DNA of 64,000 bases from NCBI GenBank assembly GCA_963827655.1, contig CAWHCF010000009.1, positions 19,791 through 83,790 of the forward strand, in the 5' to 3' direction. Origin of the DNA: an uncultured Acidobacteriota bacterium (GTDB taxonomy: Bacteria > Acidobacteriota > UBA6911). Within the stretch, counting starts at the first letter, position 1, and the number at the start of each line of letters is the position of its first letter. This document shows positions 1-20,914 of the stretch, one piece after another. The translations under genes and the position numbers were made by a program. The notes under the pieces are model-generated. The model saw only the letters and a program-made list of their open reading frames with translations. It had not been told where the DNA came from and did not search any database.

Positions 1-372
1 CTTGCAGAGCAGCCCGAACTCATCAAACGGCGCAGGGCATTTTTCTTCGACTCTCAGGCACTTGGGAAGGAGAAGAAGCCGGCGCTCGAATGGAACCGGA
101 GCGAGGTGTTCCCGCCAGGCTTCGTTGCTTAGCACGACGGCCAGGTAATCACGGTACTTCGGATCGAGGTTGAGCCGATGGCAGAGTTCCTCCGAATGGT
201 TGCGAAGTTCCTCCAGCGAGAGCGGAGGAACCGGGCGGACTTGTTCGACATACCCGATCACGGCCTCCTTGACCCGGTCGCGCTCACCGCGTGTCTGTGG
301 GATGTTTGCCTGCGGTGTGCGGTAAGTCTGAACCGGAACCGGTCGTGGGATATTCAAAATTGGAATCTGCAT
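1..372 (-). CDS. DUF116-domain / polyprenyl synthetase family protein, N-terminal part (runs off window edge)
   Basis: Not in the ORF track; translated by hand from ATG 372 (RBS GAGGAG): MQIPILNIPRPVPVQ...RRLLLLPKCLRVEEKCPAPFDEFGLLCK. LLLPxCLR..C...C is the DUF116 motif. The polyprenyl synthase fusion is inferred from family knowledge and lies outside the window. Confidence 0.7.
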   Translation of the reverse strand, partial: MQIPILNIPRPVPVQTYRTPQANIPQTRGERDRVKEAVIGYVEQVRPVPPLSLEELRNHSEELCHRLNLDPKYRDYLAVVLSNEAWREHLAPVPFERRLLLLPKCLRVEEKCPAPFDEFGLLCK

Positions 373-403
373 GCGCTCCTCGCCTGAGAGTGCGTCCGCT
401 TCC

Positions 404-1597
404 TTAGGTATACGCGCCGAAACCAAAGAACCAGTGCTTCTTGGCAAATCGATAGGCCCAGTGCTCCTCGGGTACTTCATTTCCGGGATTATGCTGACTG
501 TTTCGCCCGGTCAGCCCGCCCAGCTCGACCAGAGCAGTTCCTCTCTGGGTGGTATCCCGGGCGCCATGCCGGAGGACGAGGTCCTGCACCAGGTCGGGGC
601 GCTCCAGAACGATACAGCCGCGCGTCGCGCCTGCCGCAGTCTCGCGGAATTCGCGCAGGAACGAAGATCCGTTCATGGTCTCGAAAAGGCCTCGGCCATC
701 ATGGATCGTCTCCTTGGCGAACTGGATGATCGGGCAGGGCTCGATATCCCCGTAGGGACTGATGTGGTGGCTGACTCCCGTCGCCATCGGGCAGAGCGCC
801 TGGCCCTGATCGTCCCAATAGGCATCGACGATGGCGATCGGCAGCCGGGCCCGCATGCGCACGATAAACCGGCGCACCTGGAGCACCTGTTCCGGAGTGA
901 GCGCGAGCTCCGGAGACGCTTTGGGACCGATCACACGGTAGGTGTGGAACCAGACGTAGTGAACGCCGAGTCCGACCAGCCGGCGAAGCCAGGCCTCCGA
1001 GACCAGGTCGTCGATGTTGGTCCGGCAGACGCTGGTTGCGACCCCGGTGATCAGGCGGTTGCGCCGGCAATTCTCCAGGCCGGCCAGAGTCCGATCGAGC
1101 ACCTGCGCGCGGCCGCGGCGCTCGTCGCTCACCGCGGCAGTCCCCTCGATGCTGACCAACGGACTGGCATTCCCGACGCGGCGCAATTCGCGCGCGACTT
1201 CGTCGCTGATCAGCTGGCCGTTCGTGAAAATCTGAAAGTAGCAGTCCGGGTGCGCCTCCAGAATCCGGAAAAGCTCGGGATGCAGGAAGGGTTCGCCGCC
1301 GAGAATGCCGAAGTAGCTGTTGCCATGTCGCTTCGCATCGTTGAGCAGGCGGTTCATGTCGTCGAGCGAAATGAACTGCCGCGGCGCCTCCACGTCCACC
1401 CAGCACCCCTGGCAGCGGAGCTGGCAGCTATTGATGATCGAGATGAAGAGAAAAGGGGGAAAGTGCTCGCCGCGGCGCAAGCGCTTCTTGTAGAGCTGGA
1501 CCGAACGCATCCCTTTGTAGCCGAAGTTATAGGCAAACTTCCACACCAGCCGTCTGTCCGGTTCGGTCATCATGCGGCGCGCGAAGCTGAGCATCAT
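404..1597 (-). CDS. Radical SAM protein with SPASM/twitch-like C-terminal region
   Basis: CQLRCQGC (CxxxCxxC), GGEPF, FTNG, and C-terminal CP...ISPYGDIEPCP. Confidence 0.92.
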   Translation of the reverse strand: MMLSFARRMMTEPDRRLVWKFAYNFGYKGMRSVQLYKKRLRRGEHFPPFLFISIINSCQLRCQGCWVDVEAPRQFISLDDMNRLLNDAKRHGNSYFGILGGEPFLHPELFRILEAHPDCYFQIFTNGQLISDEVARELRRVGNASPLVSIEGTAAVSDERRGRAQVLDRTLAGLENCRRNRLITGVATSVCRTNIDDLVSEAWLRRLVGLGVHYVWFHTYRVIGPKASPELALTPEQVLQVRRFIVRMRARLPIAIVDAYWDDQGQALCPMATGVSHHISPYGDIEPCPIIQFAKETIHDGRGLFETMNGSSFLREFRETAAGATRGCIVLERPDLVQDLVLRHGARDTTQRGTALVELGGLTGRNSQHNPGNEVPEEHWAYRFAKKHWFFGFGAYT

Positions 1598-1628
1598 AGG
1601 ACGGACCCACCCGTTATACTTTGATTCA

Positions 1629-2498
1629 TCATTCCGAAATTCCCTGTCCCGCGTCTGCCAGCGCGGCCTCTGATCTGACCTTCGCGGCTTCCGCCTTCGC
1701 TCGGATCTGGTCGAGAGAAGGGAGCGACGCCAGCACCTCCGGCGGAATATCGAGCTTTTGCTGGAGCTGAATCAGGCATCGCTGCCGCTCCTTCAAAGCG
1801 CGCTCCTCATCCCGCTCCTTGGAGAACCTGGACTTGGCGCGTGTGCTCCGGTCACGCAGCGCGGCATAGATGTCCCCGCCGAGCAGGGCGGAAATATCGA
1901 CTTTCATCGCTTCGCGGCGAACATCTTCGGTATTCACTTCATCGCCGTTGATGGGGCTGTGCCGGTATTTCGGGAACAGGATGGCCACCTCGGGACAGAC
2001 GCGCGAACAGGCCGGACAGTCGGTCTTGCAGTTGCTCTGGTTCTGCACGCGGATCTTCCCTTCCGGCGAGACCGCGTACACCTCGAACAAACAGAAGCTC
2101 AGGCACTGCATGCAATTCGTGCAGCGCGAATAATCGATGACCGGGAACCAAGGTTTCCAGGCACGGGGCTGAGGCGGCTGCGATTCGGTGCGCAACTGCT
2201 CCGCGATGGCGAGGACGTTGTCCGGTCCTAAACCCTCGATGTCATGAAACTGAACCCGAACCGCTCCCCGGTCATCGATTGCGAGCGCAGGATTCTGCTG
2301 CAGGAAGCGGCCCAGCACCAGAAGGGATCCGCCTGCTGCCGGCAGCGCCAGCGATCCGTTCCCGCGAGCGCACGAAACCGGGAAGCCCTTCTCCAGCAGA
2401 CCCCGGAGAATCAGGCCGCGGTCGGCCTGCGGGAGAGGCCGGCTGCCGGTACCCTCATAGAGAATTACCTGCCACGGGGTGCTGGTGGGCCGGGTCAC
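1629..2498 (-). CDS. 4Fe-4S dicluster ferredoxin-domain protein
   Basis: CTNCMQCLSFC and CKTDCPACSRVCP. GTG start at 2498 overlaps the upstream TGA (GTGA) and has RBS GGAGG. Confidence 0.88.
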   Translation of the reverse strand: MTRPTSTPWQVILYEGTGSRPLPQADRGLILRGLLEKGFPVSCARGNGSLALPAAGGSLLVLGRFLQQNPALAIDDRGAVRVQFHDIEGLGPDNVLAIAEQLRTESQPPQPRAWKPWFPVIDYSRCTNCMQCLSFCLFEVYAVSPEGKIRVQNQSNCKTDCPACSRVCPEVAILFPKYRHSPINGDEVNTEDVRREAMKVDISALLGGDIYAALRDRSTRAKSRFSKERDEERALKERQRCLIQLQQKLDIPPEVLASLPSLDQIRAKAEAAKVRSEAALADAGQGISE

Positions 2499-2848
2499 GA
2501 TTGTTCCTCCTCTTCCGCGACCAGCCTCCCGACAACACTTTCTGCGCTCTCGGTCCTCATATTGAGGATCTGGACCCCCTCCTGCGCCAGCGGCGCCTCG
2601 GCCGCGGCGAAGAGCCATCGGACCGCGCGCGGGTAGCACGCGACGATTTTCAGCGGGCCGCTCCCTAGCTCCTTGAGCGCCGGATCATGGCGCGCGGACA
2701 ACTCACATAGATCAGGTACCGCATCGAAGGCCTGGCCGGAAGCCGCCAGACGGTCCAGTACTTCGCGCTTCACGTCCGCCGGTACCACTTCGGCATAGGC
2801 GCAATGGCAATAGAGAATCCGCGCTCCGGGTTGCTTCACGTCACCCAT
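2495..2848 (-). CDS. Small Cys-rich protein resembling the HdrA N-terminal domain
   Basis: YCHCAY...DLCELS...VACYPRAVRWLF...LNMR parallels HdrA CxCG..LCS..AACSPR..NIRE. ATG 2848 with GGAG RBS. Confidence 0.7.
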   Translation of the reverse strand: MGDVKQPGARILYCHCAYAEVVPADVKREVLDRLAASGQAFDAVPDLCELSARHDPALKELGSGPLKIVACYPRAVRWLFAAAEAPLAQEGVQILNMRTESAESVVGRLVAEEEEQS

Positions 2849-2877
2849 AGAACTCCGCAAAACTCAGATTCCCGTGG

Positions 2878-3047
2878 TAGTGTGGCTCAGACATTCTTCC
2901 GAGCACCCTGTGGCGACGGGCCATTGGCCCGTCGCAAGTAACGTAATCGGCATGCCTTAACCTTAAAAAGTTCAGTAGTGCCCCTCGGGAGCCGGACGGG
3001 CTTGATAGCCCGTCCGCACATATACCGGGAGGTTTTGCGACAATCTC
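2878..3047. repeat. ~165-bp intergenic repeat with two GC hairpins (REP-doublet/MITE-like), copy 1
   Basis: Near-identical to 6158-6318. Palindromes GCGACGGGCCATTGGCCCGTCGC and CGGACGGGCTTGATAGCCCGTCCG. Confidence 0.9.
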
Positions 3048-3147
3048 TGATGACCCGCGCATTCTTCTCACGGCTGCGTCTACTCTCTCGGTCCTTCGTG
3101 CCTCAACTGCTCCACAATACGCTACTCGTAATTGCGAACAGCAGTAT

Positions 3148-3615
3148 TCAGCCATCCGCTCTTTCCTGCTTTTCCAGCATCTTGTCAATGGTGGCGTCCA
3201 GTATCGCGACGTAACCGTGTACGTCCACACTGCCGGGATCGGGCTCTCCGCGGGCCTGGTAGAGCCATCCAAGGTAGGGATTCGAATCAATCAGCGTGAT
3301 GTCCTGTGCGAGTTCGGCGCTGCTCCCGGCGAATTCGCCCCTGATGACCGAATAGACGTCCGTGATTGCTTTGAACCCTTCGATCCAACCTATCGTCTGG
3401 CCGACCGTCACCGGCTCGCCTTCCTTTACTTTGAATTCCAGCTCCACCAGATCACCGAGCATCCGGGTCGCGAACTTGGTCAGGCCCACCCGCACCAATC
3501 CGCCGGCATTCCGGGCAATCCAGTAGTGCGATGCCGTGTACAAAAGATCCACAGGCAAACGGGTCGAGAAGCGCGACCGTTTGTAGTAGACAGTTTCAGG
3601 TGGAGCTGGCTGCAT
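3148..3615 (-). CDS. gcvH: Glycine cleavage H-like lipoyl carrier protein
   Basis: YTASHYW, VGLTKFATRMLGDLV, IEGFKAITDVYSV (lipoyl Lys retained), NPYLGWLY. Confidence 0.88.
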   Translation of the reverse strand: MQPAPPETVYYKRSRFSTRLPVDLLYTASHYWIARNAGGLVRVGLTKFATRMLGDLVELEFKVKEGEPVTVGQTIGWIEGFKAITDVYSVIRGEFAGSSAELAQDITLIDSNPYLGWLYQARGEPDPGSVDVHGYVAILDATIDKMLEKQERADG

Positions 3616-3646
3616 GGCTGCATCCCACGGTTCCCCGAGGCCGGCA

Positions 3647-4780
3647 TTATAGCGTAAGTTCGTGGAGGGCCCAAACCATCCTGGCCAGGTCCGGCGCTTC
3701 CGTAAGGTGAGACCAGGAAAAGCGAATCGCCCCGTCCATCCGCCCGCGGTCCAGTCCCATTGCGCTCAACACGTGGCTGCAGGTGTAGCTCTGGGACGTG
3801 CAGGCGGCTCCGTTCGAGACGGCCACGAGGTCTTTCCAGGCCTCGATCACGACCTCCGCATCGAGATCCGGAAAAGACAGGTTCAGAATGTTCGGCGTCC
3901 GGCGCTCCGGATCGCCGTTGATCCGCGGATGAAATGGTTCCAGGGCTGCCATCAGCCGTCCGCCGAATTCGCGGCAGGCTTGAGCACGGTTCTCGCACTC
4001 CTCGAGCGCCAGTTCGGCGGCCAGACCCAGGCCCGCGATCAGATGGACCGGAAGGGTTCCCGACCGCAGGCCACGCTCCTGACCTCCTCCATACATCAAC
4101 GGAGCGAGGGGGGGCCGTTCGCCATTGCGCCGCCGGGCCACAAGCGCTCCCACTCCTTTCGGCGCGTGAATCTTGTGACCGCTGATACTGATCAAATCGA
4201 TTCGGCGATTCCGCAACGACTCGACGTCCTTGCCGAAGCCCTGAGCGGCATCCGCGTGAAAGTAGACGGGAGACTGGTCCAGAAGTTCGGCAATTCTGGC
4301 CAGCGGCTGAATGACGCCGGTCTCGTTGTTCACGTGCATGACTGAAACCAGGAGGGTATCGCTGCGGAGAGCCGAGAGGACCGAGGCGGGATCAATCCAG
4401 CCGCCCGCATTCGGTTCGACCAGCGTGATCTCGAAACCTTGCTCCCTCAATTGGGCCAGGGGCTCCAGGACGGCGTGATGCTCGATGCGCGTGCTGACAA
4501 TGTGGCGCCGGCCGCTGCGCAACCCATGCGGGGCGAGTCCCAGAAGCGCCAGGTTGTTGCTCTCGGTGGCTCCGCTGGTGAACGTCACTTCGCCGCGCGA
4601 GGCCCCGACCACCTGCGCCACCTGGTCGCGAGCTTTCTCGACGGCGCGGCGGGCACGAATGCCGTACTCGTGAGTTCGGCTGCCGGAGTTGCCGAACTCT
4701 TCTGCAAGGTAGTGGGTGACCACGGCGTAGACCCTGGGATCAATCGGAGTGGTCGCCGCGCAATCGAGATAAACTGCCAT
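3647..4780 (-). CDS. Cysteine desulfurase (group I, DndA-like)
   Basis: YLDCAATTP, FGNSGSRTHEYG, TSGATESNN, SGHKIHAPKGVG (PLP Lys), RSGT, GAACTSQSY (catalytic Cys). Confidence 0.93.
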   Translation of the reverse strand: MAVYLDCAATTPIDPRVYAVVTHYLAEEFGNSGSRTHEYGIRARRAVEKARDQVAQVVGASRGEVTFTSGATESNNLALLGLAPHGLRSGRRHIVSTRIEHHAVLEPLAQLREQGFEITLVEPNAGGWIDPASVLSALRSDTLLVSVMHVNNETGVIQPLARIAELLDQSPVYFHADAAQGFGKDVESLRNRRIDLISISGHKIHAPKGVGALVARRRNGERPPLAPLMYGGGQERGLRSGTLPVHLIAGLGLAAELALEECENRAQACREFGGRLMAALEPFHPRINGDPERRTPNILNLSFPDLDAEVVIEAWKDLVAVSNGAACTSQSYTCSHVLSAMGLDRGRMDGAIRFSWSHLTEAPDLARMVWALHELTL

Positions 4781-4922
4781 CACGTCCTGATTCTCCGGGT
4801 TTCTGTCCCACACAGGATACCCGGGTGATTGCGCAATGTTATCCTGTGTCGCGGTCTTTTCAAATAGGCTGAGATGCGCTCACTTCCGGAAACGCGAGCC
4901 GGCGAGCACTGGAGCTCTCCAA

Positions 4923-5654
4923 GTGGTCCGACTGCTTGATCAAACCCTCTCCTCGCCGGAGGAGAATCTGGCGCTCGACGAAGCGCTCCTTGTAGAGCTC
5001 GAGTGCGCCGTCGACGAGGGGAGGAAGCCTCTTTCCTGCGAGACCCTCCGGTTGTGGGAGAGCCCGGTGCCCTTTGTCACGCTCGGCGCCGGCAGTAAAG
5101 TGCGGGACGAGGTCGATCGCGAACTATGCCATGCCGATAGACTCCCGATCCTGCGCCGCTGCTCCGGGGGTGGAACTGTGGTGCTGGGTCCCGGCTGCTT
5201 GAGTTTCACCCTCATTCTCTCGCTGGAACTTCGTCCCGAGCTGCGCGATGTGCGCGCCAGTTACGACAGGCTGCTGGGCGCGCTGGCACAGGCGTTCGCT
5301 CTCGAAGGCCTCGCGCGCGCGGGCCCGTCGGACCTGGCCTACCACGGGCGGAAGTTTTCAGGAAATGCCCAGATGCGGAAGAGCTCCAGCATGCTCCATC
5401 ATGGAACGATTCTGTACGGCTTCGACCTCGATCTCGTCGACCGGTACCTGCCGGTGCCGAGGTTGATTCCGCGGTACCGTCGCGGGAGATCCCACCGCGA
5501 TTTTCTGTGCAATCTTCCTCTGAACGCCCGACAGGTCCGCGCGGTACTCGCGCGCGCTTTTGAAGCCAATGCCGCGAGCGATGCGGAACTGCCGGAGTAC
5601 TCCCGGTTGGTGGCGGAGAAGTATGCCCGATCGAGCTGGATCGAGCGGCGATGA
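4923..5654 (+). CDS. lplA: Lipoate-protein ligase A family (catalytic domain only)
   Basis: NLALDEALL, LRLWE, RRCSGGGTV, RKFSGNAQ, HHGTIL. Start probably GTG 4923. Confidence 0.9.
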   Translation: MVRLLDQTLSSPEENLALDEALLVELECAVDEGRKPLSCETLRLWESPVPFVTLGAGSKVRDEVDRELCHADRLPILRRCSGGGTVVLGPGCLSFTLILSLELRPELRDVRASYDRLLGALAQAFALEGLARAGPSDLAYHGRKFSGNAQMRKSSSMLHHGTILYGFDLDLVDRYLPVPRLIPRYRRGRSHRDFLCNLPLNARQVRAVLARAFEANAASDAELPEYSRLVAEKYARSSWIERR

Positions 5655-5726
5655 ATCGGGACCTCCGGTGCGCTCACGGGTTTCTGGGTAGACCTGTGAA
5701 GCCGGGTTTCATGTTAAACTTGCGTC

Positions 5727-6086
5727 ATGATGCGCCGACGAGCTACTCGAAACGTCGCCGACCCCGGGAGCGATCTGTTGCTCTTTGAAGGATTCGACTG
5801 TGTGGGCGCGCTCAAGGCGCTGGGCGAGGACACGCGAGTGCGCATCATGGGTCTCTTGCTGGAAGCGCCCCTTGGCGTCTGTGAGATCGCGCGCCGTCTC
5901 GGCACGACCCACTACAACATATCCAAACATCTGCGCATCCTGCGCGAGGCGGGGCTGCTGGACGTCGAAAGGCACGGCCGGGAGCGTCTCTACATGGTGC
6001 CTGAGAGAATCCGGCGCGGCCGAAGAGCGCACGCTAAAGTGCTGGACCTGGGTTGCTGCAGCTTTCAATTCGATCAACGGTCCTGA
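5727..6086 (+). CDS. ArsR/SmtB family transcriptional repressor with C-terminal Cys-Cys
   Basis: LKALGEDTRVRIM, VCEIA, ISKHLRILREAGLL, LDLGCC. Confidence 0.9.
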   Translation: MMRRRATRNVADPGSDLLLFEGFDCVGALKALGEDTRVRIMGLLLEAPLGVCEIARRLGTTHYNISKHLRILREAGLLDVERHGRERLYMVPERIRRGRRAHAKVLDLGCCSFQFDQRS

Positions 6087-6157
6087 GAAGCTGGAAAAAA
6101 ATTGGGGACTGGGCTCAGTCGGCAGAGACGCATAACACAAGCCCAAGGTTCTTGTAC

Positions 6158-6318
6158 TAGCGTGGCTCACACATTCTTCCGAGCACCCTGTGGCGACGGG
6201 CCAGTGGCCCGTCGCAAATAACGTAATCGGATGCCTTAACCTTCAGTTGTGCCCCTCGGGAGCCGGACGGGCTTGATAGCCCGTCCGCACATGTATCGGG
6301 ACGTTTTGAGACAGTCTC
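6158..6318. repeat. ~165-bp intergenic repeat, copy 2
   Basis: Direct copy of 2878-3047, between convergent arsR-like and arsI-like genes; ends TTTTGAGACAGTCTC. Confidence 0.9.
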
Positions 6319-6432
6319 CGAATTCATCTGTACCATCAACCACGCCTGACGGGCGTGGCTACTTTCTGCCGGCTCTTCGAGCCTCTCCAATTTCTTCACA
6401 CCTCCTGAGGCCCGGACTTCGCGCTCACCTTC

Positions 6433-7512
6433 TCACCGGACGCCGAAGTCGGGAGGCTCGTCCTCATCGGCACACGCGGCGTCGCGGACCTTGGGTGCGA
6501 GAAAGACAAACGCCGCGCCGGCCTCTCCCTTCGACAGCATCTGCCAATCATGCACGTTGAGCGGGGTCAGCTCACCGCGGCGAAACACGTTCCCGTAGTC
6601 GTCCGCTACCTGTGCCAGCGGCCCTCGATAGACGGCGTGATGAGTTTTCGCTTTCGAGCGGTGACCCGGTTTCGTGGCCCGGATACGAAATTCGCGCATG
6701 GGCACTCCCGCAACGACGAAGTACGCCGTCTGTGAAAGCGTCTCGAGCTCGACTTCGACAAAGCCGGCCTGAGTGAGCTCCACCACCATTTCGGTCGCGG
6801 TAGGGACATACTCCACGGCCATTGCCGGACCTGGGAGCGACAGCTTTTCATCGTTACCGGGGTAATCGCCCGCCAGTCCGTGGATCTGGATGCTGCCCCC
6901 GGGCCGCAATGCCCGCAGCGCTTCCGGGATCAGTCGATCGCGATGGACTGCGTTAGGGCTGGCGTTGAGACTACCCTCCAGCGCCACTTCGTGCAGTGTG
7001 TTCGCTTCGTGAGGAATCTTGTCGGGAAAGGCTTCGCCCAGACGGTGCGACCAGATCAACCGCGGTTTCGAAACGACGACGGGCGGGTTGAGCGCCTCGA
7101 TTGGAATGGTCGCATCGCCCCGCTCGGGGATGTCTTCGTGAAAGACATAGATTTCCCACAGCATGCGATCCGGATCGGAAACCCAGAACTTCGTCTGACG
7201 GGCATAGCAACACTCGACTCCTTCCTCCCGCCTGGTGCCGATGCCGGCAGCTTCGAGGCGCCTTTGCACCTCCACCAGCTCGTCCGCGTTTCGCACACGC
7301 AAACCGACGTGATTCACGTTCCCGCCCGGCTTGCCGGGGATCAACGATAGTATGAGCGGAGGTTCGGCAAGTTCGAACTTGGCATAATCCCCTCGAACCT
7401 TTGCCGGCTCCACGCCAAGCAGCACTCGGTAGAACGCAACCGATCGTGTGAGGTCGGTCACAGTCAGCGAGGCATGGAACTTCAGAAGCGAGTCGTGAAC
7501 CGGTCCTGCCAT
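6433..7512 (-). CDS. ArsI/CadI-family VOC metalloenzyme fused to a degenerate methyltransferase-like C-terminal domain
   Basis: KFHASL, YAKF, NHVGL, ECCYARQTKFWVSDPD, WEIY (ArsI/CadI signature). C-terminal half has ALRALRPGG and YRGP...DDYGNVFRRGE. Confidence 0.85.
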   Translation of the reverse strand: MAGPVHDSLLKFHASLTVTDLTRSVAFYRVLLGVEPAKVRGDYAKFELAEPPLILSLIPGKPGGNVNHVGLRVRNADELVEVQRRLEAAGIGTRREEGVECCYARQTKFWVSDPDRMLWEIYVFHEDIPERGDATIPIEALNPPVVVSKPRLIWSHRLGEAFPDKIPHEANTLHEVALEGSLNASPNAVHRDRLIPEALRALRPGGSIQIHGLAGDYPGNDEKLSLPGPAMAVEYVPTATEMVVELTQAGFVEVELETLSQTAYFVVAGVPMREFRIRATKPGHRSKAKTHHAVYRGPLAQVADDYGNVFRRGELTPLNVHDWQMLSKGEAGAAFVFLAPKVRDAACADEDEPPDFGVR

Positions 7513-7532
7513 AGTATCCTCCAGATTGATAG

Positions 7533-7625
7533 GTGTCTTGGCGTCTTCGTGTCTTTGTGGTTAGCCCCCCGAAACAAATACCACCAGGATACAAAGACAC
7601 GAAGAAACACCAAGAATCTTTGTGT
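7533..7625. repeat. Inverted CACGAAG/CACAAAG-type short repeat pair (REP-like)
   Basis: GTGTCTTGGCGTCTTCGTGTCTTTGTGG faces CCACCAGGATACAAAGACACGAAGAAACACCAAG. A related unit lies at 25577-25697. Confidence 0.55.
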
Positions 7626-8823
7626 GCCCGGGGGAGGATGACACGGACGGCAAGGAGACTCGCAGCGCCGCAACGCCCAGCGCAGCTATCGCCGGCGCCA
7701 GCATCCAAAGCGCAGGCATGTAGGAGCCTGTCAGCTCCGCGCACTTGGCGAACAGGAGCGGACCCAGTGCTGAAGCCAGCACCGTCAGCATCTGGGCGGC
7801 GCCCTGGATTCTGCCGAGGTGTGCGGCGCCGTAGGCGCGCCGCCAGATAGCAAAGAAGATCACGGTAATCATGCCGCCGGAAAGCCCCATCAGCGCCGCA
7901 AAGACCCATAAACCGGACAGTGCCGTGAGCAGCGGAAACACGGCCAGAGCCAAAGCGTATGCGGCCAGGGCAAGCGCCAGGATACGCTGCATCGACCAAC
8001 GCAGCGTGAGAAACCCGCACCCGAGTTGACCGAACAGCGCGATGAGCGCCGAGCCGGCGAGAAACTGGTGGTACGTCTCGCGGTTGAAGCCACGCTCGGC
8101 AAGCACCGCTTCATTGAACAACCCCAGACCCGAGGAGACGAGACCATACAGCGACGTGGCGCCACCGAAGACCCAGAACGCAGGAGTGGTCAGCGCGTCC
8201 GACAACGACAGCCCCTCGGCTGTTCCGTTCGGCTGCAAACCCGGATCGCTCTTGCCGGGTTCACGAGCGAAGAATAGCACGACCGGCGCCACGAACAAGG
8301 CCAGCGCCCATGCGATCGCGGCCCACGCGTCGCGCCAGCCCCGGTCACGAACCAGGCTGCCGACGATCGTGAACGCGCCGGCGAAGAACAGGCTCAGCAA
8401 CACGGAGTACACGCCCATGGCCAGGCCCACACCGCGGTCGAAGCCTTTGCCTACCACCGTGATGCTCGCAACTGAAAGCGCGCTCTGGCCCAGCGCGCGG
8501 GTGGCGAGAACGAGAAGGAACAAGAACAGGATGCCGCCTGAGAGCCCGCTCATCTGCCAGACGGTCAGGCTCAGGAGCGCCGTGATCAATACCGTGGTCA
8601 GGCGCAAACCGAAGCGATCGAAGATCCGGCCGACCGGAAGGCAGACGACAGCTCCGAGCAGCGTGGCCCAGAGATTGAGGTGCGCGTAAGATATCCGATC
8701 CAGATGCAGGTCCCGCAGCAGTGGCTCTGTGATGAGGCCCAGGCCCTGAGTTCTGCCGGGCAGGGTCGCGACCATGATCAGCGCTCCGACAACGACATTG
8801 ATCCAGGCGCTGATCCGGCGCAT
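7561..8823 (-). CDS. MFS transporter
   Basis: About 12 hydrophobic segments, motif A GRIFDRFGLR, YGAAHLGRIQG. Confidence 0.9.
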   Translation of the reverse strand: MRRISAWINVVVGALIMVATLPGRTQGLGLITEPLLRDLHLDRISYAHLNLWATLLGAVVCLPVGRIFDRFGLRLTTVLITALLSLTVWQMSGLSGGILFLFLLVLATRALGQSALSVASITVVGKGFDRGVGLAMGVYSVLLSLFFAGAFTIVGSLVRDRGWRDAWAAIAWALALFVAPVVLFFAREPGKSDPGLQPNGTAEGLSLSDALTTPAFWVFGGATSLYGLVSSGLGLFNEAVLAERGFNRETYHQFLAGSALIALFGQLGCGFLTLRWSMQRILALALAAYALALAVFPLLTALSGLWVFAALMGLSGGMITVIFFAIWRRAYGAAHLGRIQGAAQMLTVLASALGPLLFAKCAELTGSYMPALWMLAPAIAALGVAALRVSLPSVSSSPGHTKILGVSSCLCILVVFVSGG

Positions 8824-8826
8824 AGC

Positions 8827-9612
8827 TTAGCGGAAGAAGGTCATCGTCTTGCCGTACTCGGCATAACGATCCTTGAGCCATTCGGCGAACTCTGCATAGT
8901 GCCGTTCGCGCTGATCGCCGCCGTCGCTGAACGCGTTGTAGCTCAGATAAAGCAGGCGCCGCGACCGGCTCGATCGGTTGGGCAGCGAACGATGCGGGGT
9001 ATACCCGCTGAAGACGGCGACATCCCCCGGCTCCAGGCAAAGGAGCACACCGGTTGAGGGATCGACGGCATCGTCCGGCAACTGGTGATACATGCCGTCC
9101 CGGGGCGACATGCAACCGCGGCGATGATAACCAGGAAACACTTCCGTCGCACCGTTCTCATGATCGCAGGGATCGATGGCGACGATGGCGGTGACGAAGC
9201 TGGTGGGAAAAGACTCCCAGGCAATGTAGTCCTGATGAAGGCGGTAACCGTCCGCGCCCGGAAGTTTGAAAATCAACTTGTCCTTGAACAGGCAGGCTCG
9301 CTCGCCATAAAGCTGCCCGACGAGCTCGAGCAGCACTCGGCTGCGGGCGATGCGTTCGCAAGCGGGGCTGAGATCGATTACGGGGTCGAAGCAGTCGAAG
9401 CGGCACTCGCCGGTCTGGAAGTGATTCTGCCAGCGGCAACGAATGTTGTCGCTATCGATGAGATCGATGCGCTGGTAGAGACGGACTGCTTCCGCATCGA
9501 GCTCGGAAATCTCTCCGGCGGACAGGACACCACGGACGATGACGAAGCCATCCTGGACATATTGCCGGATCGCCGCATCCTCCAGCCGCCGCTCAGTCGC
9601 CGCCTTGAGCAT
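8827..9612 (-). CDS. Phytanoyl-CoA dioxygenase (PhyH) family Fe(II)/2OG oxygenase
   Basis: QDGFVIVRGVLS, HQD, NGAT, GDVAVF...PHRSLPNRS..RR. Confidence 0.92.
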   Translation of the reverse strand: MLKAATERRLEDAAIRQYVQDGFVIVRGVLSAGEISELDAEAVRLYQRIDLIDSDNIRCRWQNHFQTGECRFDCFDPVIDLSPACERIARSRVLLELVGQLYGERACLFKDKLIFKLPGADGYRLHQDYIAWESFPTSFVTAIVAIDPCDHENGATEVFPGYHRRGCMSPRDGMYHQLPDDAVDPSTGVLLCLEPGDVAVFSGYTPHRSLPNRSSRSRRLLYLSYNAFSDGGDQRERHYAEFAEWLKDRYAEYGKTMTFFR

Positions 9613-9637
9613 GGCAAACTTTCCTTTCGCTCCTGGC

Positions 9638-11794
9638 TCAGAAGGTCAGCCCCATGGTAATCCCGAACTGGCGCGGCGCCCCCATTTCCCCGACAAATCC
9701 TGACGGCGCCAGAGCGCCGTAGGCAAACGCTATCGGGATGTACCGCGTGTCGAACGCATTCTTGACCCAGCCTTCGACGAACCCGTACCGCACGCGCACT
9801 CCGGCGCGGAAGTTCGCGAGGGAGTATGCCTCCTGAGCTCGACTGTTGGCGTCATTGTAATCGAAACCGCCGTTGAACCATACCTCGCCGCGCCCATAAA
9901 GGGTCACCGATGGGCTGAGGATACGGGAGTACTGCGCGCCCAGTGTCGCCGTAAAGTCCGGAGTGCTGGGAAGTTTGTTTCCGGACACATCGAGGCCGCT
10001 GGAAGAGGTTCCGTCAGCGAAGCGCGCGTGCGTGTAACCGAAAACGCCGAAGAGATCGATGGCCGGGTGAGGCCGCGCAATGAGTTCCAGCTCGACTCCC
10101 TTGCTCCGGGCGCCGCCGATGTTTGCAATGTAAAACTGGGCCGGTACGGCCGGGTTGGGCAGGTTGAGTTGCAGCCCGCTCCAGTCGATGTAGAACACGG
10201 CCGCGTTGGCGGATACCTTGCCATCGGCCAGCAGGGTCTTGACTCCGCTTTCCACATGCCAGGCGTGCTCTTCGTCATAGGCTTCGTTGCCGGGCGGAGA
10301 CGCCGCGTTGAAACCGCCGGCCTTGAATCCCCGGCCCGCCGAAGCATACACCATCCGGCCCGGCTGGAAGCGGTAGGAGGCTGCAAACTGCGGCGACACG
10401 TTGGAAAAGTCCTTTTCGGCCGACACGCTGCGGCCCGGACTGAAGGCCGGATCAAAGAATGTGTTCAGCACCGCTTCCTTGTCCTCATAATCGAAACGGG
10501 CGCCCAGGGTAATGTCGAAGTTGTCGCTGAACGTCGTCGTGACCTGGCCGTACACACCCACGCCCACGTCATCCAGGTCGGCCTCCGGCGAATGCTGGTT
10601 TATCGGGAAATTCAGCTGAGGCGATAAGACGAACGGCGCAAAGCTGTTGATGGCGTCCTGTTCGTAGCTCTGGGTGAAGAAGAATATGCCGGTCTGCCAT
10701 TTCATCGTAACGCCGTCCGCCAGGCGCGCCGGCGCAGCGGTAGCCGAGGCAAAGCGCACTTCCTGAGTGAACTGGAAATCGGTCTCGCTGTTGTCACGAG
10801 TTATCAGAGGCGCGGGCGAGTAGTCCAGGTCGGTCACGTCCTGCGTCTTCCAGTGGACGAATCCTGTGGTGGTGGCGAAAGCGAAGCGCTGCCCTTCGCG
10901 GCGCGTCTGGATGACCGTGGACAGCACGTCCCGGTTCGTGAAGCCTTCAAAGTCGCGGGCTGAGTGAAAGGGATTCTGCCGCAGGGCCTCCAGATCGTTG
11001 AGCGCGTAGTCGCCGTCGCGGTCGCGCTCTCCCGTGAGGATGACCCGCGCTTCCCATTCGCTGTTGGGCACCCACCAGAGTTGAGCCTTCCCGTAGGAGG
11101 CCGCGCGAGAGTCCAGGTCGTTACCCGTGACGTCGTTGAGCGTGAAACCCTCGCGCTCACCGTGCCCGATCGTCAGTCCCACACCCAGCTTGTCGGTTAC
11201 CGGTCCCGACACACTTCCCCTCGCGTCCCAGTTCGAGTAGTTGCCCACCGGAACGATCACACTGCCGGCCCATTTCGACAGAGAGGGTCTCTGGGTGGTG
11301 ATGTTGACCAGCCCACCGAGCGTGTTGCGGCCGAATAACGCGCTTTGCGGTCCGCGAACGAACTCGACCTGGCCGATGTCCAGGAACTCGATGTTGGACG
11401 AGTTCGTGTTGAGCTGGGGCACACCGTCGATATAGGTCGTGATCCCGGGATTCATCGGGCTCGAACTGATGCCGCGAAACCGGGCATTGCTCAGCTTGCG
11501 CGCCGTGAACTCCGAAAAAAATGTGTTGGGCGCATATATGGAGGCGTCGCTTACCTTCAGGACGCCGGCGTTTTTCAGCACCGTCTCGGACACTCCGGTC
11601 ACGCTGACCGGCAACCGCTGGGCGTCGTCCGGCTCCTTGTAAACGTGGACCGTTATCGGCGGCAGCCGGATCGGATCCGGTTCCTGCGCCGGCGCCGATT
11701 GTGCCAGCGCAGCAGGCGGGGCGCCCGTCCCGAGGACGCCGGAGATGAGGATGAGCAGGAGCAACGGGGTCGCATTTCCACGCAGGATTCGCAT
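9638..11794 (-). CDS. TonB-dependent receptor
   Basis: Signal peptide, plug motif VEFVRGPQSALFGRNTLGG, GFKAGGFN, terminal Phe. Start 11794 chosen because the promoter and operator lie at 11811-11850. Confidence 0.92.
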   Translation of the reverse strand: MRILRGNATPLLLLILISGVLGTGAPPAALAQSAPAQEPDPIRLPPITVHVYKEPDDAQRLPVSVTGVSETVLKNAGVLKVSDASIYAPNTFFSEFTARKLSNARFRGISSSPMNPGITTYIDGVPQLNTNSSNIEFLDIGQVEFVRGPQSALFGRNTLGGLVNITTQRPSLSKWAGSVIVPVGNYSNWDARGSVSGPVTDKLGVGLTIGHGEREGFTLNDVTGNDLDSRAASYGKAQLWWVPNSEWEARVILTGERDRDGDYALNDLEALRQNPFHSARDFEGFTNRDVLSTVIQTRREGQRFAFATTTGFVHWKTQDVTDLDYSPAPLITRDNSETDFQFTQEVRFASATAAPARLADGVTMKWQTGIFFFTQSYEQDAINSFAPFVLSPQLNFPINQHSPEADLDDVGVGVYGQVTTTFSDNFDITLGARFDYEDKEAVLNTFFDPAFSPGRSVSAEKDFSNVSPQFAASYRFQPGRMVYASAGRGFKAGGFNAASPPGNEAYDEEHAWHVESGVKTLLADGKVSANAAVFYIDWSGLQLNLPNPAVPAQFYIANIGGARSKGVELELIARPHPAIDLFGVFGYTHARFADGTSSSGLDVSGNKLPSTPDFTATLGAQYSRILSPSVTLYGRGEVWFNGGFDYNDANSRAQEAYSLANFRAGVRVRYGFVEGWVKNAFDTRYIPIAFAYGALAPSGFVGEMGAPRQFGITMGLTF

Positions 11795-11810
11795 CGGCGC
11801 ACGTTTTAAC

Positions 11811-11848
11811 ATGTGCGCCATTATGCACATTTCGCCCCGGCACGCAAA
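11811..11848 (-). promoter_or_regulatory. Putative sigma70 promoter overlapped by a palindromic operator (ArsR-type?)
   Basis: ATGTGC-N8-GCACAT at 11811-11830 overlaps the minus-strand TTGCGT-N16-CATAAT. Confidence 0.5.
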
Positions 11849-11877
11849 TTATTTGAGGATGTGGGCCATGCGACTAA

Positions 11878-12109
11878 GGGCTCGCGCAGAAATAACTTCA
11901 CATTCTGGCGCGAGAGTGGGTGTCAATCATGAACCGGTTTCTGTTCGCTAAGCACGGTGAGGATCGCGCCCCTTCGGGCTGCGGCCCGCAGGCCCGCTGG
12001 CTTTGTTGCTCGCTCCTCACGTACCGCACCGGGTACGCATCGTCGCTCGCGCCTCGCCAGCGGGCCTGGGGGCCTGCAGCAGAATGCGAACCTATTTCTG
12101 CGCGAACCC
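11878..12109. mobile_element. 232-bp MITE, copy 1
   Basis: TIR GGGCTCGCGCAGAAATA / TATTTCTGCGCGAACCC, 3-bp TSD TAA, long internal hairpin, no transposase. Confidence 0.88.
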
Positions 12110-13215
12110 TAAGCGGAGGCCATGCGATAAGTGGGCACCGGCCTTGCCGGCCGGAAATGCTCGGTATGCACGGTATCGGCGCGCGCGCCGATGCGTGAAG
12201 TCACGGCGGCAAGCGCATCAAGCACCGCCCGGTGCAAAGACTCGGGATCCGCCTCGGCACGCAGGTTCACAATAAGCTCGCCGGAGCTTAGTTCGTCCCG
12301 AAGCGTGTGGGATAGTTCGGCTGCGCGATCGTTACCGACCTGGTTGAGCACGGCGATGTCGCCGACATCCTCGTCCGGGGTGAGGACAACTTTGAAATGC
12401 GCCAGTTCGGGGCGTCCGGCCGCAAGATGACTGGTAACTTCATGCGCCAGGTCGGAGAGGAACTTGTTGCCATCGAAGCCCTCGGGTGCCGTCACATGGA
12501 AGGTACCGTTGAACCAGCCCAGCAGCGCTTCGCCTTCGGCATACAAATCGTAGTCCACGTCCGGCGCGACTCGCGTGTCCGACTCGGTGCTGCCGACGCG
12601 CTCGAACCACCCTTCGAGTCCATCACGGGTTCTGGCGCTGACCAGAAAAACTTCAGCCGCGCCGTAGGTCGCTCGCAGCGCGTCTTCCAGCGACGATAGT
12701 TTCTCCTTTCCCAGGAGATCCGACTTGTTGATAACGATAATATCCGCTTCCTCCAACTGCTTGTGGTAGACGTAGAGCACCTTATCCGAGAATCCTTTGC
12801 CGGACTCGAGGCCGAGAATCCGGCGCGCGCGGATGGGATCCACAAGAACGCTTAACGGCGCGATGCGATAGTCATCTCCATACAGACGGCGCAGAGGATA
12901 TTGCACGGAGGCGCGCAGATCGGTGCAGCTTCCCACGGGCTCGGCAAGAAACACGTCAGGCTTCGCCGCTTCGGTCAATCGTTCCGCGGCAGAGGTCAAT
13001 GAATTGAACCGGCAGCAAAAACATCCGCCCGTGATCTCCTGGACCGGATACCCGTGAGAGTCCACCATCGCAGTGTCCACGAGACCGGTACTCTGATCAT
13101 TGGTGATCAACCCGACGCGCCGTCCTCTCGAGGTCAGATGTTCTGCCAGTCTGAGCAGGGCCGTCGTCTTCCCGGCGCCCAGGAAGCCTCCCACCATTAT
13201 GTAATCAGCTTTCAT
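12109..13215 (-). CDS. CobW/COG0523 (G3E) family metallochaperone GTPase
   Basis: GGFLGAGKTT, ITND, GCFCC, EPVGSC, INKSD. ATG 13215 with GGAGG RBS. Confidence 0.92.
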   Translation of the reverse strand: MKADYIMVGGFLGAGKTTALLRLAEHLTSRGRRVGLITNDQSTGLVDTAMVDSHGYPVQEITGGCFCCRFNSLTSAAERLTEAAKPDVFLAEPVGSCTDLRASVQYPLRRLYGDDYRIAPLSVLVDPIRARRILGLESGKGFSDKVLYVYHKQLEEADIIVINKSDLLGKEKLSSLEDALRATYGAAEVFLVSARTRDGLEGWFERVGSTESDTRVAPDVDYDLYAEGEALLGWFNGTFHVTAPEGFDGNKFLSDLAHEVTSHLAAGRPELAHFKVVLTPDEDVGDIAVLNQVGNDRAAELSHTLRDELSSGELIVNLRAEADPESLHRAVLDALAAVTSRIGARADTVHTEHFRPARPVPTYRMASA

Positions 13216-13544
13216 CGTTCGGTTCCTCCGTCGAATGCCGCGGCTAGTTGTGTTGGGAGTCAGGGGCCGCATCGATCCCAACTCTACCAACTCCATTTCG
13301 AAACTGCAATCACCGCGGGATTCGATTCGTCACCTCCTTGTGCTCGGTGGTTATCCTCACGTTCGGCTCCGGGAGAAGAGCGTCGTTGGCCAGGCCCACC
13401 ACAGCGAAAGCTAAAATCGTTTGCCTTCTGCCCGAAAGACTGTGTGAGAATTACCTGGTTCGTGCAAATTCGGAGTTCTTCGTGCCGGGTCAACGCCGGG
13501 TTCCGGGCCCATGCACGAAGTCGATTTTTCGGAGACAGACTAGA

Positions 13545-15485: not shown

Positions 15486-16730
15486 ATGGATCTCGACAGA
15501 CTTAAGAATCGTCCCAAAGACGTGCGCGCGCGTGTCTGGATTTTCCGCGTCCACCTATGGGTTGGCATTACCATCGGACTCTATGCTTGCTTCATCGGAA
15601 CCACCGGAAGCGTGCTGATGTTCCGGGGTCACTTCGAACGAGCGGCCAATCGTGATTGGCTTGCCGTCGAACCTGAGCCAGGGGCTCGCAGGCTCTCTAC
15701 GGATGAAGTTGTTGCTCTGGTTCGTGAGCGCTCCCCCGAGAGTCGCATCATCGGGCTCATACTCCCGCAGGATGAAAACGGCAGTTTTCAGGTTACCATC
15801 CAGGTCTCCCAACCAGGCCCTGCTGCTCAACCAGGAACCGGCGGCTCCCGAAGCGGAAGTCCGGCAAGAAACCAGACTCTTTACATTCATCCGGAAACCG
15901 GAGCGCTGCTCGGAGCGAGTCAACCGGGTGGGGGTTTCTGGCAATGGATGCACGTCTTTCACGGCAGCCTTCAGGCGGGCCGGACCGGGCGGGTCATCAA
16001 TGGTTATGCCGGTATTCTCATGGTCATCATGTGTCTGACCGGCCTGTGCATCTGGTGGCCCGGACTGCCGAGTTGGAAACGCCATCTTGGAGTTAATCGG
16101 AAGGCCGGGTGGAAGCGCCTGGTGTGGGAGCTTCATAGCGCCACGGGTTTCTGGTCTGTGCTCTTTATTCTCGTGCTCTCCCTTACCGGCATCTACTACA
16201 CGTGGCCGGATGCCTACCGCAATCTCATATCCAGAATCAGTCCCTTGACTCGGAATCAGCAGCCGCCAGCCGTGGCGTGGGACGGGACGGCCCGGCCCCT
16301 GACCATTGGCTCACTGGTCACGATCGCTGAAGAGACGCTTCCAGGCAAGAAGGTTTCCAGGGTCCGCATGTCTCCGGGGGGAAAACAGGCCATCCAGATG
16401 ATGCTGCCGGAGAGTTCCTGGGAAGAATCGCGCAACGTCAATTCCATCTACTTGAATCCCTACACCGGGGAGGTGGTGAAGAAGGACCTCCTGCAGAATT
16501 GGACGCTGGGTGACCGGCTCCTTTCATGGGTCACGCCGATTCACTTTGGTACTTTCGGCGGGATTGCTCTCCGAATCTTGTATTTCGTGCTTGGTCTTTC
16601 TCTCCCGCTCCTGTTCATCACCAGCTATGTGATGTGGTGGAACCGCGTCGTCCGAAAACGTGTGTTCTCTCTAAGCGGAGCTGGCGAGCGCGGAGGCGAG
16701 ATGGCGCCCAGCGAGGGTGAAGCGGCTTAG
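15486..16730 (+). CDS. PepSY-associated TM helix protein (PiuB-like)
   Basis: HLWVGI, TGSVL, H..L..G..G, LHSATG, IHFGTFGG. Confidence 0.9.
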   Translation: MDLDRLKNRPKDVRARVWIFRVHLWVGITIGLYACFIGTTGSVLMFRGHFERAANRDWLAVEPEPGARRLSTDEVVALVRERSPESRIIGLILPQDENGSFQVTIQVSQPGPAAQPGTGGSRSGSPARNQTLYIHPETGALLGASQPGGGFWQWMHVFHGSLQAGRTGRVINGYAGILMVIMCLTGLCIWWPGLPSWKRHLGVNRKAGWKRLVWELHSATGFWSVLFILVLSLTGIYYTWPDAYRNLISRISPLTRNQQPPAVAWDGTARPLTIGSLVTIAEETLPGKKVSRVRMSPGGKQAIQMMLPESSWEESRNVNSIYLNPYTGEVVKKDLLQNWTLGDRLLSWVTPIHFGTFGGIALRILYFVLGLSLPLLFITSYVMWWNRVVRKRVFSLSGAGERGGEMAPSEGEAA

Positions 16731-16827
16731 AGGTAATTGCACAGAGACTGGGCCATGTGTTTCCCGAGCCCCTTTCGCATCGCGTACCCAACCCGGTCCA
16801 TCAGGATTATATATTGAGAGGTGAAAG

Positions 16828-19292: not shown

Positions 19293-19376
19293 GCTGAAAG
19301 AGCGTCCGGGAGCGCGATTCCCTTCCCGTTTTCCCGGCGTTTCTTCGGCCAGGTTTGCATTTAGATAAAAGGTCAC

Positions 19377-20057: not shown

Positions 20058-20347
20058 GCGGCTGGTTCTCGATCGACCGGGCCGTGTCAGGCGGGTGGAT
20101 CGGACACTCCGCATTTCGCTCGCTCCTGTCCCCGGCGTGCGTGCAGGTCTTGCAGGAAGCACGCGAACCCCAAATCGAGTACACTAAGCGATCGGGTCCT
20201 GACCGGCCGGCGTCATCCTCTCTATGGGGGATGAAATCTGGCGGGCGGCTCACATGGCTGTCGATCTCACGGGGTTGAACAACGCAGTTGTAGTGGGCAC
20301 GGCGCACAGGTGAGAATTCCATGCCAAACCATTAACCCGGGAGAATC

Positions 20348-20854: not shown

Positions 20855-20914
20855 GGCGGAAACGAGGCTCGGACGGCGATTCTGGCAGTGCCAGTCGAGC
20901 GGAAGAGTGAAACG

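Follow-up and report, generated by a model that had tools for sequence, protein, structure and literature searches.

The left end of a 64,000-nucleotide stretch of DNA from an uncultured Acidobacteriota bacterium of the UBA6911 lineage (positions 19791-83790 of contig C9 of its genome, G000; "the window"), together with the 4.2 kb before it, contains one conserved set of nine genes. Eight of these genes have a fixed order. They encode, in that order, a GcvH-like lipoyl carrier, a CobW-like GTPase, a small protein with four conserved cysteines (the small 4-Cys protein), an iron-sulfur (Fe-S) protein of the 2x[4Fe-4S] type, a radical S-adenosylmethionine (SAM) enzyme, a DUF116 domain fused to a prenyl synthase, a prenyltransferase-like toroid, and an SHC-like (squalene-hopene cyclase-like) cyclase. 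The ninth gene encodes a cysteine desulfurase. On balance, we think that the set probably encodes a pathway to a cyclic isoprenoid that does not derive from squalene, with an Fe-S, metallochaperone and lipoyl redox module of its own; each enzymatic step of this pathway is inferred. We examined the DNA to the left of the window as C9:6001-25900 (L001), and the conserved unit ends at G000:C9:15625.

The main evidence that these genes belong together is their conservation. We searched one genome per species and obtained at least 599 matching stretches, at least 577 of which had a relative of the radical SAM enzyme. We then compared the gene neighborhoods of the best 80 of these relatives. They belong to Acidobacteriota, Planctomycetota, Armatimonadota, and Abditibacteriota, and in their best aligned segment they are 66-77% identical to the enzyme from the window. 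Each neighbor was counted only among loci whose contig reaches the expected position, and only if it had the same strand and order. The carrier gene is present in 64 of 66 loci, and the CobW-like gene, which the initial annotation had included in the set, lies between the genes for the carrier and the small 4-Cys protein in 66 of 67. The genes for the small 4-Cys protein (72/73 loci), the Fe-S protein (73/74), the DUF116-synthase fusion (64/65), the toroid (62/64), and the cyclase (52/59) are kept as well. The desulfurase gene is near the set in 36 of the 48 loci that were covered on both sides, either upstream of the carrier (15 loci) or after the cyclase (21 loci). A lipoate ligase gene, which is also beside the cluster in the window, is present in just 7 of 55 loci. 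Loci from all four phyla share this gene order, a recurrence that goes far beyond what chance would give. When we searched with the flanking open reading frames (ORFs) of 14 loci, no further conserved family was common to more than 12 loci, apart from antisense shadows.

A few loci depart from this arrangement. In L068, genes for a 3-keto-disaccharide hydrolase and a BamB-like protein, which look unrelated to the cluster, lie between the toroid and the cyclase; in L042, one extra ORF without a Pfam family was scanned at the same place. The radical SAM orthologue at L029:9983-11194 (69% identical) has no other gene of the set nearby and is surrounded by housekeeping genes (queuosine synthesis, purH, PP-loop protein, and rsmB). 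The bin is labelled Alcaligenaceae, yet its radical SAM sequence branches among Gemmataceae; a binning error or an unlinked copy is possible. No locus was found when a Verrucomicrobial GcvH-like protein served as the query.

More broadly, radical SAM relatives at E ≤ 1e-60 were found in 6 of 151 sampled genomes from the window's phylum (including its own) and in 28 of 151 sampled genomes from the phylum of the planctomycete L021 (including L021), so the trait is patchy. We also built a quick maximum-likelihood tree from 81 radical SAM sequences. Rows from Acidobacteriota and Planctomycetota are interleaved in it, and the starred branches force at least four label changes for each of these two groups. 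This fits transfers between phyla and does not prove them.

Pfam and NCBIfam scans confirmed that all of the genes named in the initial annotation are present in the window, on the minus strand except for the ligase (Table 1). Read 5' to 3' on that strand, the order is desulfurase, GcvH-like carrier, a gap of 299 nt, small 4-Cys protein, Fe-S protein, radical SAM enzyme, and DUF116 gene. Two gene overlaps had been claimed within this run, and one of them is real: the genes for the small 4-Cys protein and the Fe-S protein share a GTGA (stop codon at 2497-2495, start at 2498), with a strong ribosome-binding stretch (GGAGGAGGAA) upstream. We dropped the overlap of the radical SAM and DUF116 genes because it was based on the longest ORF, and both conservation and an ATG at 372 point to a start farther downstream. 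Conservation of the DUF116 ORF begins near residue 40, and the ATG at 372 is preceded by GAGGAG. This ATG, which is 31 nt past the stop codon of the radical SAM gene, is the likelier start.

Table 1. Features of the conserved set and its surroundings. Coordinates are window positions unless given for contig C9 of genome G000.
Feature	Coordinates	Strand	Size or start	Family match or remark
GcvH-like lipoyl carrier	3148-3615	minus	155 aa	GCV_H, E 9.4e-19
CobW-like (G3E, COG0523-type) GTPase	12109-13296 (ORF)	minus		cobW, E 6.8e-26
Small 4-Cys protein	2495-2848	minus	117 aa	no Pfam or NCBIfam family
Fe-S protein	1629-2498	minus	289 aa; GTG start at 2498	Fer4_10, E 5.1e-7
Radical SAM enzyme, SPASM/twitch-like	404-1597	minus	397 aa	Radical_SAM, E 6.3e-16
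DUF116::polyprenyl diphosphate synthase	1..372 (first 124 codons); whole gene G000:C9:18438-20162	minus	574 aa from ATG 372	full ORF: DUF116, E 9.1e-35; polyprenyl_synt, E 4e-40
Prenyltransferase-like toroid	C9:17612-18496		294 aa	Prenyltrans, E 5e-12; single barrel
SHC-like class II cyclase	C9:15625-17535		636 aa	SQHop_cyclase_C, E 1e-34; SQHop_cyclase_N, E 1.3e-19
Class I (IscS/NifS-type) cysteine desulfurase	3647-4813	minus		Aminotran_5, E 1.5e-67
LplA/LipB-type lipoate or octanoate ligase paralogue	4836-5654	plus, divergent	272 aa	LplA-B_cat, E 1.1e-29
Dispersed ~200-nt repeat, copy 1	2856-3063			fills gap 2849-3147, the usual slot of the CobW-like gene
Dispersed ~200-nt repeat, copy 2	6158-6321			88% identity over 173 nt to copy 1
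ArsR-family regulator	5727-6086	plus
ArsI/CadI-type glyoxalase	6433-7512	minus, same-strand run		C-terminal domain with weak ArsM-like match
MFS transporter	7561-8823	minus, same-strand run
PhyH dioxygenase	8827-9612	minus, same-strand run
TonB-dependent receptor	9638-11830	minus, same-strand run

The genes to the left of position 1 tie the set to isoprenoids. A prenyl synthase domain with a DDxxD motif, a prenyltransferase-like gene, and a cyclase gene were expected there, and all three were found. The link to isoprenoid chemistry is also supported, as the DUF116 gene runs into a polyprenyl diphosphate synthase with both aspartate-rich motifs. The first of these (DDIED) and the second (DDLDD) are invariant in 27 of 27 aligned sequences, as are R268, R270, K403, and T404. 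The two motifs and lysine and arginine residues for substrate binding are what characterizes a trans-isoprenyl diphosphate synthase. The alanine and serine at -5 and -4 before the first motif are invariant in these 27 sequences too. Small residues at these two positions go with products that are longer than C20, according to mutational work on these synthases.

The DUF116 domain has seven invariant cysteines, including a CxxCxxC (27 sequences). No other DUF116 gene was found in the same genome (which is 90% complete as assembled; this applies to all of the genome-wide absences that we report), and an Atlas search with the domain, leaving out its own families, gave no usable match. DUF116 has been predicted to be a cysteine-rich and probably flavodoxin-like electron-transfer domain, and its fusion to a prenyl synthase was reported in Pirellula staleyi (Makarova et al. 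2015, PMC5898192). As described in that paper, the archaeal family (arCOG02078) has the same cysteine-rich domain with a CxxCxxC core, but the archaeal proteins have two N-terminal membrane helices and adjoin sulfite reductase or ArsA-like genes, while the domain in our set is fused to an enzyme within a terpenoid operon. Also, a 2025 preprint lists a DUF116 gene of a Bipolaricaulota isolate beside genes for IspH, a cyclase, an adenosyl-hopene transferase (HpnH-type), and a prenyl synthase (10.1101/2025.11.21.689855).

There is an overlap of 59 nt between the genes for the synthase and the toroid, and the toroid is conserved from its first N-terminal residue onward. The toroid lacks a DxDD motif and has invariant arginine, aspartate, and histidine residues as well as one invariant cysteine. 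Atlas searches with it found only its own family, whose clusters are automatically named "prenyltransferase beta subunit." In contrast, the cyclase keeps the motif, as VPDADDT (D345, D347, D348, and T349 are invariant in 27 sequences), along with the two-domain (beta-gamma) build of class II cyclases. Two kinds of long proteins, a toroid joined to a cyclase and a synthase joined to part of a toroid, were considered as fusion evidence and set aside, as they are singletons and may be gene-calling artefacts.

Is the cyclase a hopene cyclase? As in hopanoid biosynthesis, a two-domain class II cyclase with DxDD adjoins genes for a radical SAM enzyme and for isoprenoid precursors. However, the cyclase scores just 94.9 bits against the hopene cyclase model TIGR01507 (cut-off 431.1 bits), the radical SAM enzyme scores 31.7 bits against the HpnH model TIGR03470 (cut-off 225.05 bits), and the genome has no match to the squalene/phytoene synthase family (PF00494). 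The cluster's cyclase is the only strong two-domain cyclase match in the genome. We considered whether squalene synthase is generally absent where the set is present and rejected this idea: genes of this family were found in both of two other genomes with the set, and in three of five Acidobacteriota with the set. Because these other genomes have the family, its absence is a feature of this genome and not of the cluster. We know of no hopanoid cluster that includes a lipoyl carrier, a G3E GTPase, or a DUF116 domain.

Another comparison is with the "SHC-like" clade of cyclases from the PVC (Planctomycetes-Verrucomicrobia-Chlamydiae) and FCB (Fibrobacteres-Chlorobi-Bacteroidetes) groups, Spirochaetota, and Acidobacteriota. 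PMC12324236 presents this clade as having no demonstrated function or structure and as the sister of cyclases that act on head-to-tail epoxy-polyprenyl substrates, and it names the substrate of the clade as missing information. According to Santana-Molina et al. (2020, PMC7306690), planctomycete SHC-like proteins keep the catalytic residues, and their gene context suggests precursors other than squalene. Our cyclase resembles the clade in its taxa (the PVC group and Acidobacteriota), its catalytic residues, its non-squalene context, and its length of 636 aa, which is within the 550-700 aa given for the clade (PMC12324236). We infer from the taxa, the length, and the context that it is a member. 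What differs is that the accounts of the clade in these two papers do not describe the half of the set that encodes the Fe-S proteins, the carrier, and the GTPase. There are also characterized cyclases of the same fold that act on head-to-tail polyprenyl chains and are served by a dedicated prenyl synthase: Lon15, AtoE, and the Bacillus C35 route, in which heptaprenyl diphosphate is converted to tetraprenyl-beta-curcumene, the substrate of SqhC (PMC12324236, PMC7306690). Unlike these, the conserved set has no epoxidase or YtpB-like gene, and its cyclase keeps the DxDD motif. More generally, our literature searches agree with the initial annotation, as they turned up no characterized pathway that has this gene set. 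We found no paper that describes the set, and the supplement of PMC7306690 on the SHC-like context may already draw part of it.

The other half of the set is rich in Fe-S proteins. In the radical SAM enzyme, C58x3C62x2C65 and five further cysteines are invariant across 29 sequences, with a mean column identity of 77%, and the C-terminus is a conserved aromatic and basic tail. Among solved chains, it is closest to BlsE (E = 2.6e-15) and to SkfB (E = 2.5e-14), with weak matches to PqqE and to the archaeal tetraether synthase (GDGT-MAS). None of the nine solved chains that it matches at E ≤ 1e-3 is named as lipoyl or biotin synthase, LipA, BioB, or MiaB, and it is below the cut-off of every NCBIfam model.

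The Fe-S protein consists of an N-terminal alpha/beta domain, a PorD-like 2x[4Fe-4S] domain, and a helical tail that is conserved. All eight cluster cysteines are invariant across 30 sequences. Its best solved match is the delta subunit of oxalate oxidoreductase (E = 1.8e-4), and by sequence its cluster domain resembles delta subunits of 2-oxoacid:ferredoxin oxidoreductases. Foldseek gave nothing usable with the model of this protein (predicted local distance difference test, pLDDT, of 71).

For the small 4-Cys protein (C14, C16, C48, and C71 are invariant in 28 sequences), the predicted structure has a pLDDT of 90.1 and a flavodoxin-like fold. Foldseek found no match to it at E ≤ 0.001; HdrA chains appeared at E = 0.05-0.13. 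A VIA-align comparison with residues 11-139 of HdrA gave Z = 6.1, which ties with many flavodoxin-like folds (the top Z was 6.8). The likeness to the N-terminal domain of HdrA that the initial annotation saw is therefore no closer than the likeness to these other folds. The profile of this protein hit 699 clusters at E ≤ 1e-3 among 1.84 billion representatives, and 12 of the 14 longer matches that we scanned have a downstream Fer4 domain. Also, the genes for the small 4-Cys protein and the Fe-S protein read as one ORF in some of the 80 loci. Because of these natural fusions and single ORFs, we consider the two genes to be one functional unit, with the small 4-Cys protein as the apparent partner or split-off domain of the Fe-S protein. 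Two other leads on the small 4-Cys protein were rejected: its profile matches in the PDB were designed repeat proteins only, which we took as spurious, and its hhalign match to the N-terminal domain of the Fe-S protein had a probability of 54.7%, which is too weak for us to consider the two as paralogues.

The GcvH-like protein keeps the lysine that is lipoylated in H proteins (K82, in the context EGFKA) in 64 of 64 aligned rows, including its own, and so is predicted to be a lipoyl-type carrier. Both of its termini are extended by conserved segments, and no cysteine in it is conserved. As the initial annotation held, it is not the housekeeping H protein. It falls below the GcvH cut-offs of NCBIfam (75.8 vs. 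117 bits for NF002270 and 62.2 vs. 115.85 bits for TIGR00527), while a canonical gcvH (158.9 bits), to which it is 28% identical, adjoins gcvT on contig C13. The report that gcvT, gcvP, lpd, and 2-oxoacid dehydrogenase genes are missing from the window also held for the ORFs that were scanned (19, then 35 of at least 170 aa); there are no GCV_T matches on this contig, and all of the genome's GCV_T matches are on other contigs. A separate lipA, above its cut-off, is in the genome. The ligase beside the cluster lacks the C-terminal accessory domain and is the second such gene in the genome; the better-scoring one is on contig C43.

Like LbpA of the sHdr system (PMC10332631), this carrier is a GcvH paralogue outside of glycine cleavage, with a ligase of its own in some lineages and with radical SAM and Fe-S proteins as neighbors. 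But there is no HdrB/C (CCG), DsrE, or TusA among the scanned ORFs of the window and of the 13.8 kb to its left, the radical SAM enzyme's matches do not bear biotin or lipoyl synthase names, and the partners here are isoprenoid enzymes.

These results suggest the following pathway. The synthase domain would join isoprene units head to tail into a polyprenyl diphosphate that probably exceeds C20. The terminal double bond of this chain would be protonated by the cyclase to give a polycyclic isoprenoid, bypassing squalene, and the radical SAM enzyme would tailor either the substrate or the product. Both the radical SAM enzyme and the cysteine-rich DUF116 domain may receive low-potential electrons from the Fe-S proteins, while the GTPase and the desulfurase would load the metal and Fe-S centers. 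The lipoylated carrier could be a dithiol/disulfide redox partner, or a thiol partner, of the Fe-S and radical SAM module, and in some Acidobacteriota it would be charged by its own ligase.

Several points weigh against this pathway. The nearest solved relatives of the synthase are archaeal C20 synthases (E = 9.8e-26), and the chain-length rule is taken from the literature on other enzymes of this kind. Squalene stays a possible substrate in the other genomes with the set because these have genes of the squalene/phytoene synthase family. The cyclase is absent near the cluster in 7 of 59 loci (three from Fimbriiglobus and four others), and therefore the remaining genes can work without a nearby cyclase. 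Four soil metatranscriptome runs (three studies) yielded contigs that cover portions of the genes for the radical SAM enzyme, the carrier, the desulfurase, and the ligase with 92-100% identity, but these contigs are short and may stem from DNA or from relatives, and they are no proof of transcription or of an operon transcript. In this genome, the operon is possibly impaired because a repeat interrupts it and the GTPase gene has moved away (see below). Finally, the product, the substrate, the role of the carrier, and the protein modifications, including lipoylation of the carrier, are predictions from sequence, as are all of the steps of the pathway.

As an alternative, and in line with the initial annotation, the set could be a sulfur relay: persulfide from the desulfurase would pass to the carrier or to the Fe-S proteins, and the radical SAM enzyme or the DUF116 domain would insert the sulfur into an isoprenoid to form a sulfur-containing terpenoid. 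In 36 of 48 loci, a desulfurase is kept near the cluster even though its position shifts, and the desulfurase here reaches the cut-off of the NCBIfam model for DndA (495.5 vs. 480 bits), an enzyme whose sulfur ends up in a product. Given that dndC has no match in the genome, we describe the desulfurase only as IscS/NifS-type despite this score; its translation probably begins a few codons into the ORF. The five extra invariant cysteines of the radical SAM enzyme could hold auxiliary clusters, and in the sHdr system a lipoyl carrier is already known to take part in sulfur metabolism (PMC10332631). There is also a protein that joins an Aminotran_5 part to a GcvH-like part, but it is a single record in which the desulfurase part is truncated, and it may be a gene-calling artefact, so we did not accept it as fusion evidence. 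On the other side, the many Fe-S centers of the set would by themselves justify a dedicated desulfurase, the desulfurase is absent nearby in 12 of the 48 covered loci, the carrier has no conserved cysteine, and LipA, BioB, and MiaB are not among the names of the nine solved radical SAM chains. Overall, we consider a sulfur relay to be rather unlikely, although it is the most serious rival to the pathway above.

A second class V aminotransferase or desulfurase-like gene is found elsewhere in the window, at 20888-22189. It is part of an iron-uptake-like neighborhood (15486-22189) with a PepSY-TM protein, a TonB-dependent receptor with an STN domain, and a PKHD-type 2-oxoglutarate-dependent hydroxylase.

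By analogy, the chemistry might instead be tethered to the carrier: the toroid, as a relative of the beta subunits of protein prenyltransferases, would prenylate a thiol of the dihydrolipoyl group, and the later steps would take place on the tethered chain. The toroid's match to Prenyltrans, its lack of DxDD, its invariant arginine, aspartate, histidine, and cysteine, the names of its Atlas clusters, and the invariant lysine of the carrier would all be consistent with this. But the Prenyltrans family of Pfam also covers the repeats of cyclases, no alpha-subunit-like gene was seen in the conserved set, and analogy is the sole basis for the idea, which strikes us as quite improbable.

We give similarly little credence to a private route of lipoate assembly, in which the radical SAM enzyme, the desulfurase, and the Fe-S proteins would make the lipoyl group of the carrier, and the terpenoid genes would merely be adjacent. 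Genes for a carrier, a ligase, a radical SAM enzyme, and a desulfurase do occur together here, as in the sets with LbpA, sLpl(AB), LipS1, and LipS2 (PMC10332631, PMC9585515). Against this, the prenyl synthase gene follows the radical SAM gene in 64 of 65 loci, and no lipoyl or biotin synthase is named among the radical SAM enzyme's solved matches (E ≤ 1e-3). Moreover, lipA is found elsewhere in the genome, and just 7 of 55 loci have the ligase.

In this genome, the operon has been rearranged: the GTPase gene is displaced, and a repeat is in its slot. The GTPase keeps a GGFLGAGKTT P-loop and a GCFCC (CxCC) motif, each conserved in at least 95% of 68 sequences, and it scores far below the cut-offs of the CobW, ZigA, and HypB equivalogs. 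Its start is likely to be the methionine codon at 13215, where the conserved part of the sequence begins. The gene is 9 kb from the cluster and is 82% identical to the copy within the cluster of L020. The repeat that occupies the usual slot contains two perfect hairpins and has 151 blastn matches (E ≤ 1e-3) across the genome, at 75-100% identity and in both orientations; Rfam gave no match (2700-3300 was scanned). Contigs from soil metatranscriptomes pile up on the repeat, at a depth of 111-149 vs. 10 or less on the genes, and the peak in depth at 2801-3200 is this multi-copy repeat. A partial copy (34368-34425) adjoins a DDE transposase gene (34503-35528). In another locus, a 2.5-kb insertion (L017:4933-7484) parts the GcvH-like gene from the CobW-like gene; this is the junction that is also broken up in the window.

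The displaced GTPase gene heads a same-strand run of genes for a TonB-dependent receptor, PhyH, an MFS transporter, and the ArsI/CadI fusion. These four genes also flank the cluster in L020, L034, and L044, where their strand is the opposite one. This genome must differ from those three loci by two or more events, among them an inversion of the block and the move of the GTPase gene, and the second copy of the repeat is at the edge of the inverted block, between it and the ArsR gene. The block may be a unit for the uptake and detoxification of organoarsenicals or of other compounds. Positions 1 to 13215 had been taken as one cluster, which is correct for the genes at the left end and for the CobW-like gene, but the block from the ArsR gene to the TonB-dependent receptor (5727-11830) is lineage-specific and is outside of the conserved set. 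It is highly improbable that the cluster, the ArsR regulator, the four genes of the block, and the GTPase act together on an organoarsenical, and a metalloid role, which the initial annotation had offered beside sulfur, has almost no support: the GTPase gene does head the run in this genome, and the same four genes do adjoin the cluster in L020, L034, and L044, but these arsenic-type genes are near the set in only 3-4 of the 80 loci and are absent from the other 76-77, the GTPase is inside the cluster (and the four genes are on the opposite strand) in those three loci, and the cut-offs for ArsM-like and ArsH-like families are missed by a wide margin.

To the left of the cyclase are genes for an FMN reductase and a molybdate-type ABC transporter, and a broken gene for an outer-membrane barrel; the search with flanking ORFs from 14 loci showed no conservation of these genes with the set. 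The barrel gene lies at L001:951-4278 (G000:C9:6951-10278), where five overlapping ORFs in different frames match successive parts of the 838-position OMP_b-brl_4 model, and a sixth ORF, with CarboxypepD_reg, completes the series. Frameshifts seem to have broken up a large receptor-like gene here, unless the pattern comes from assembly errors. Within the window, two adjacent ORFs (29685-31041) match parts of the TLC ATP/ADP transporter family (E = 3.3e-8 and 7.2e-10) and could be a split or diverged nucleotide transporter gene. The 1339-aa protein encoded at 49441-53460 combines DUF4011 and AAA_11/AAA_12 helicase domains with an MTES_1575 restriction-endonuclease-like domain, as helicase-nucleases of defence or repair do.

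To our knowledge, this would be the first case of a lipoyl carrier and a COG0523-type GTPase being tied to terpenoid genes. The set also gives DUF116 a concrete enzymatic partner, and the genome studied here is a natural variant, with the GTPase gene displaced, a dedicated ligase present, and no squalene synthase found. For the product of the orphan cyclase, the nine genes are the ones to study together; that the cyclase alone has yielded no function may be because the conserved partners are needed with it. The substrate of the SHC-like cyclases would constrain scenarios for the origin of cyclic triterpenoids, as discussed in PMC7306690 and PMC12324236.

More speculatively, the H-protein-type carrier, the G3E metallochaperone, and the private Fe-S chain might be integral catalytic parts of isoprenoid lipid biosynthesis. 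They would supply thiol, sulfur, or electrons to the polyprenyl chain, and the SHC-like cyclase would turn the chain into a polycyclic and possibly sulfur-bearing lipid. We hold this idea only tentatively and doubt it more than we believe it. If it is true, then there is a reaction on polyprenyl chains without a known counterpart, and Planctomycetota, Acidobacteriota, and Armatimonadota of soil and water would make a new polycyclic lipid, which would be a candidate source of orphan biomarkers.

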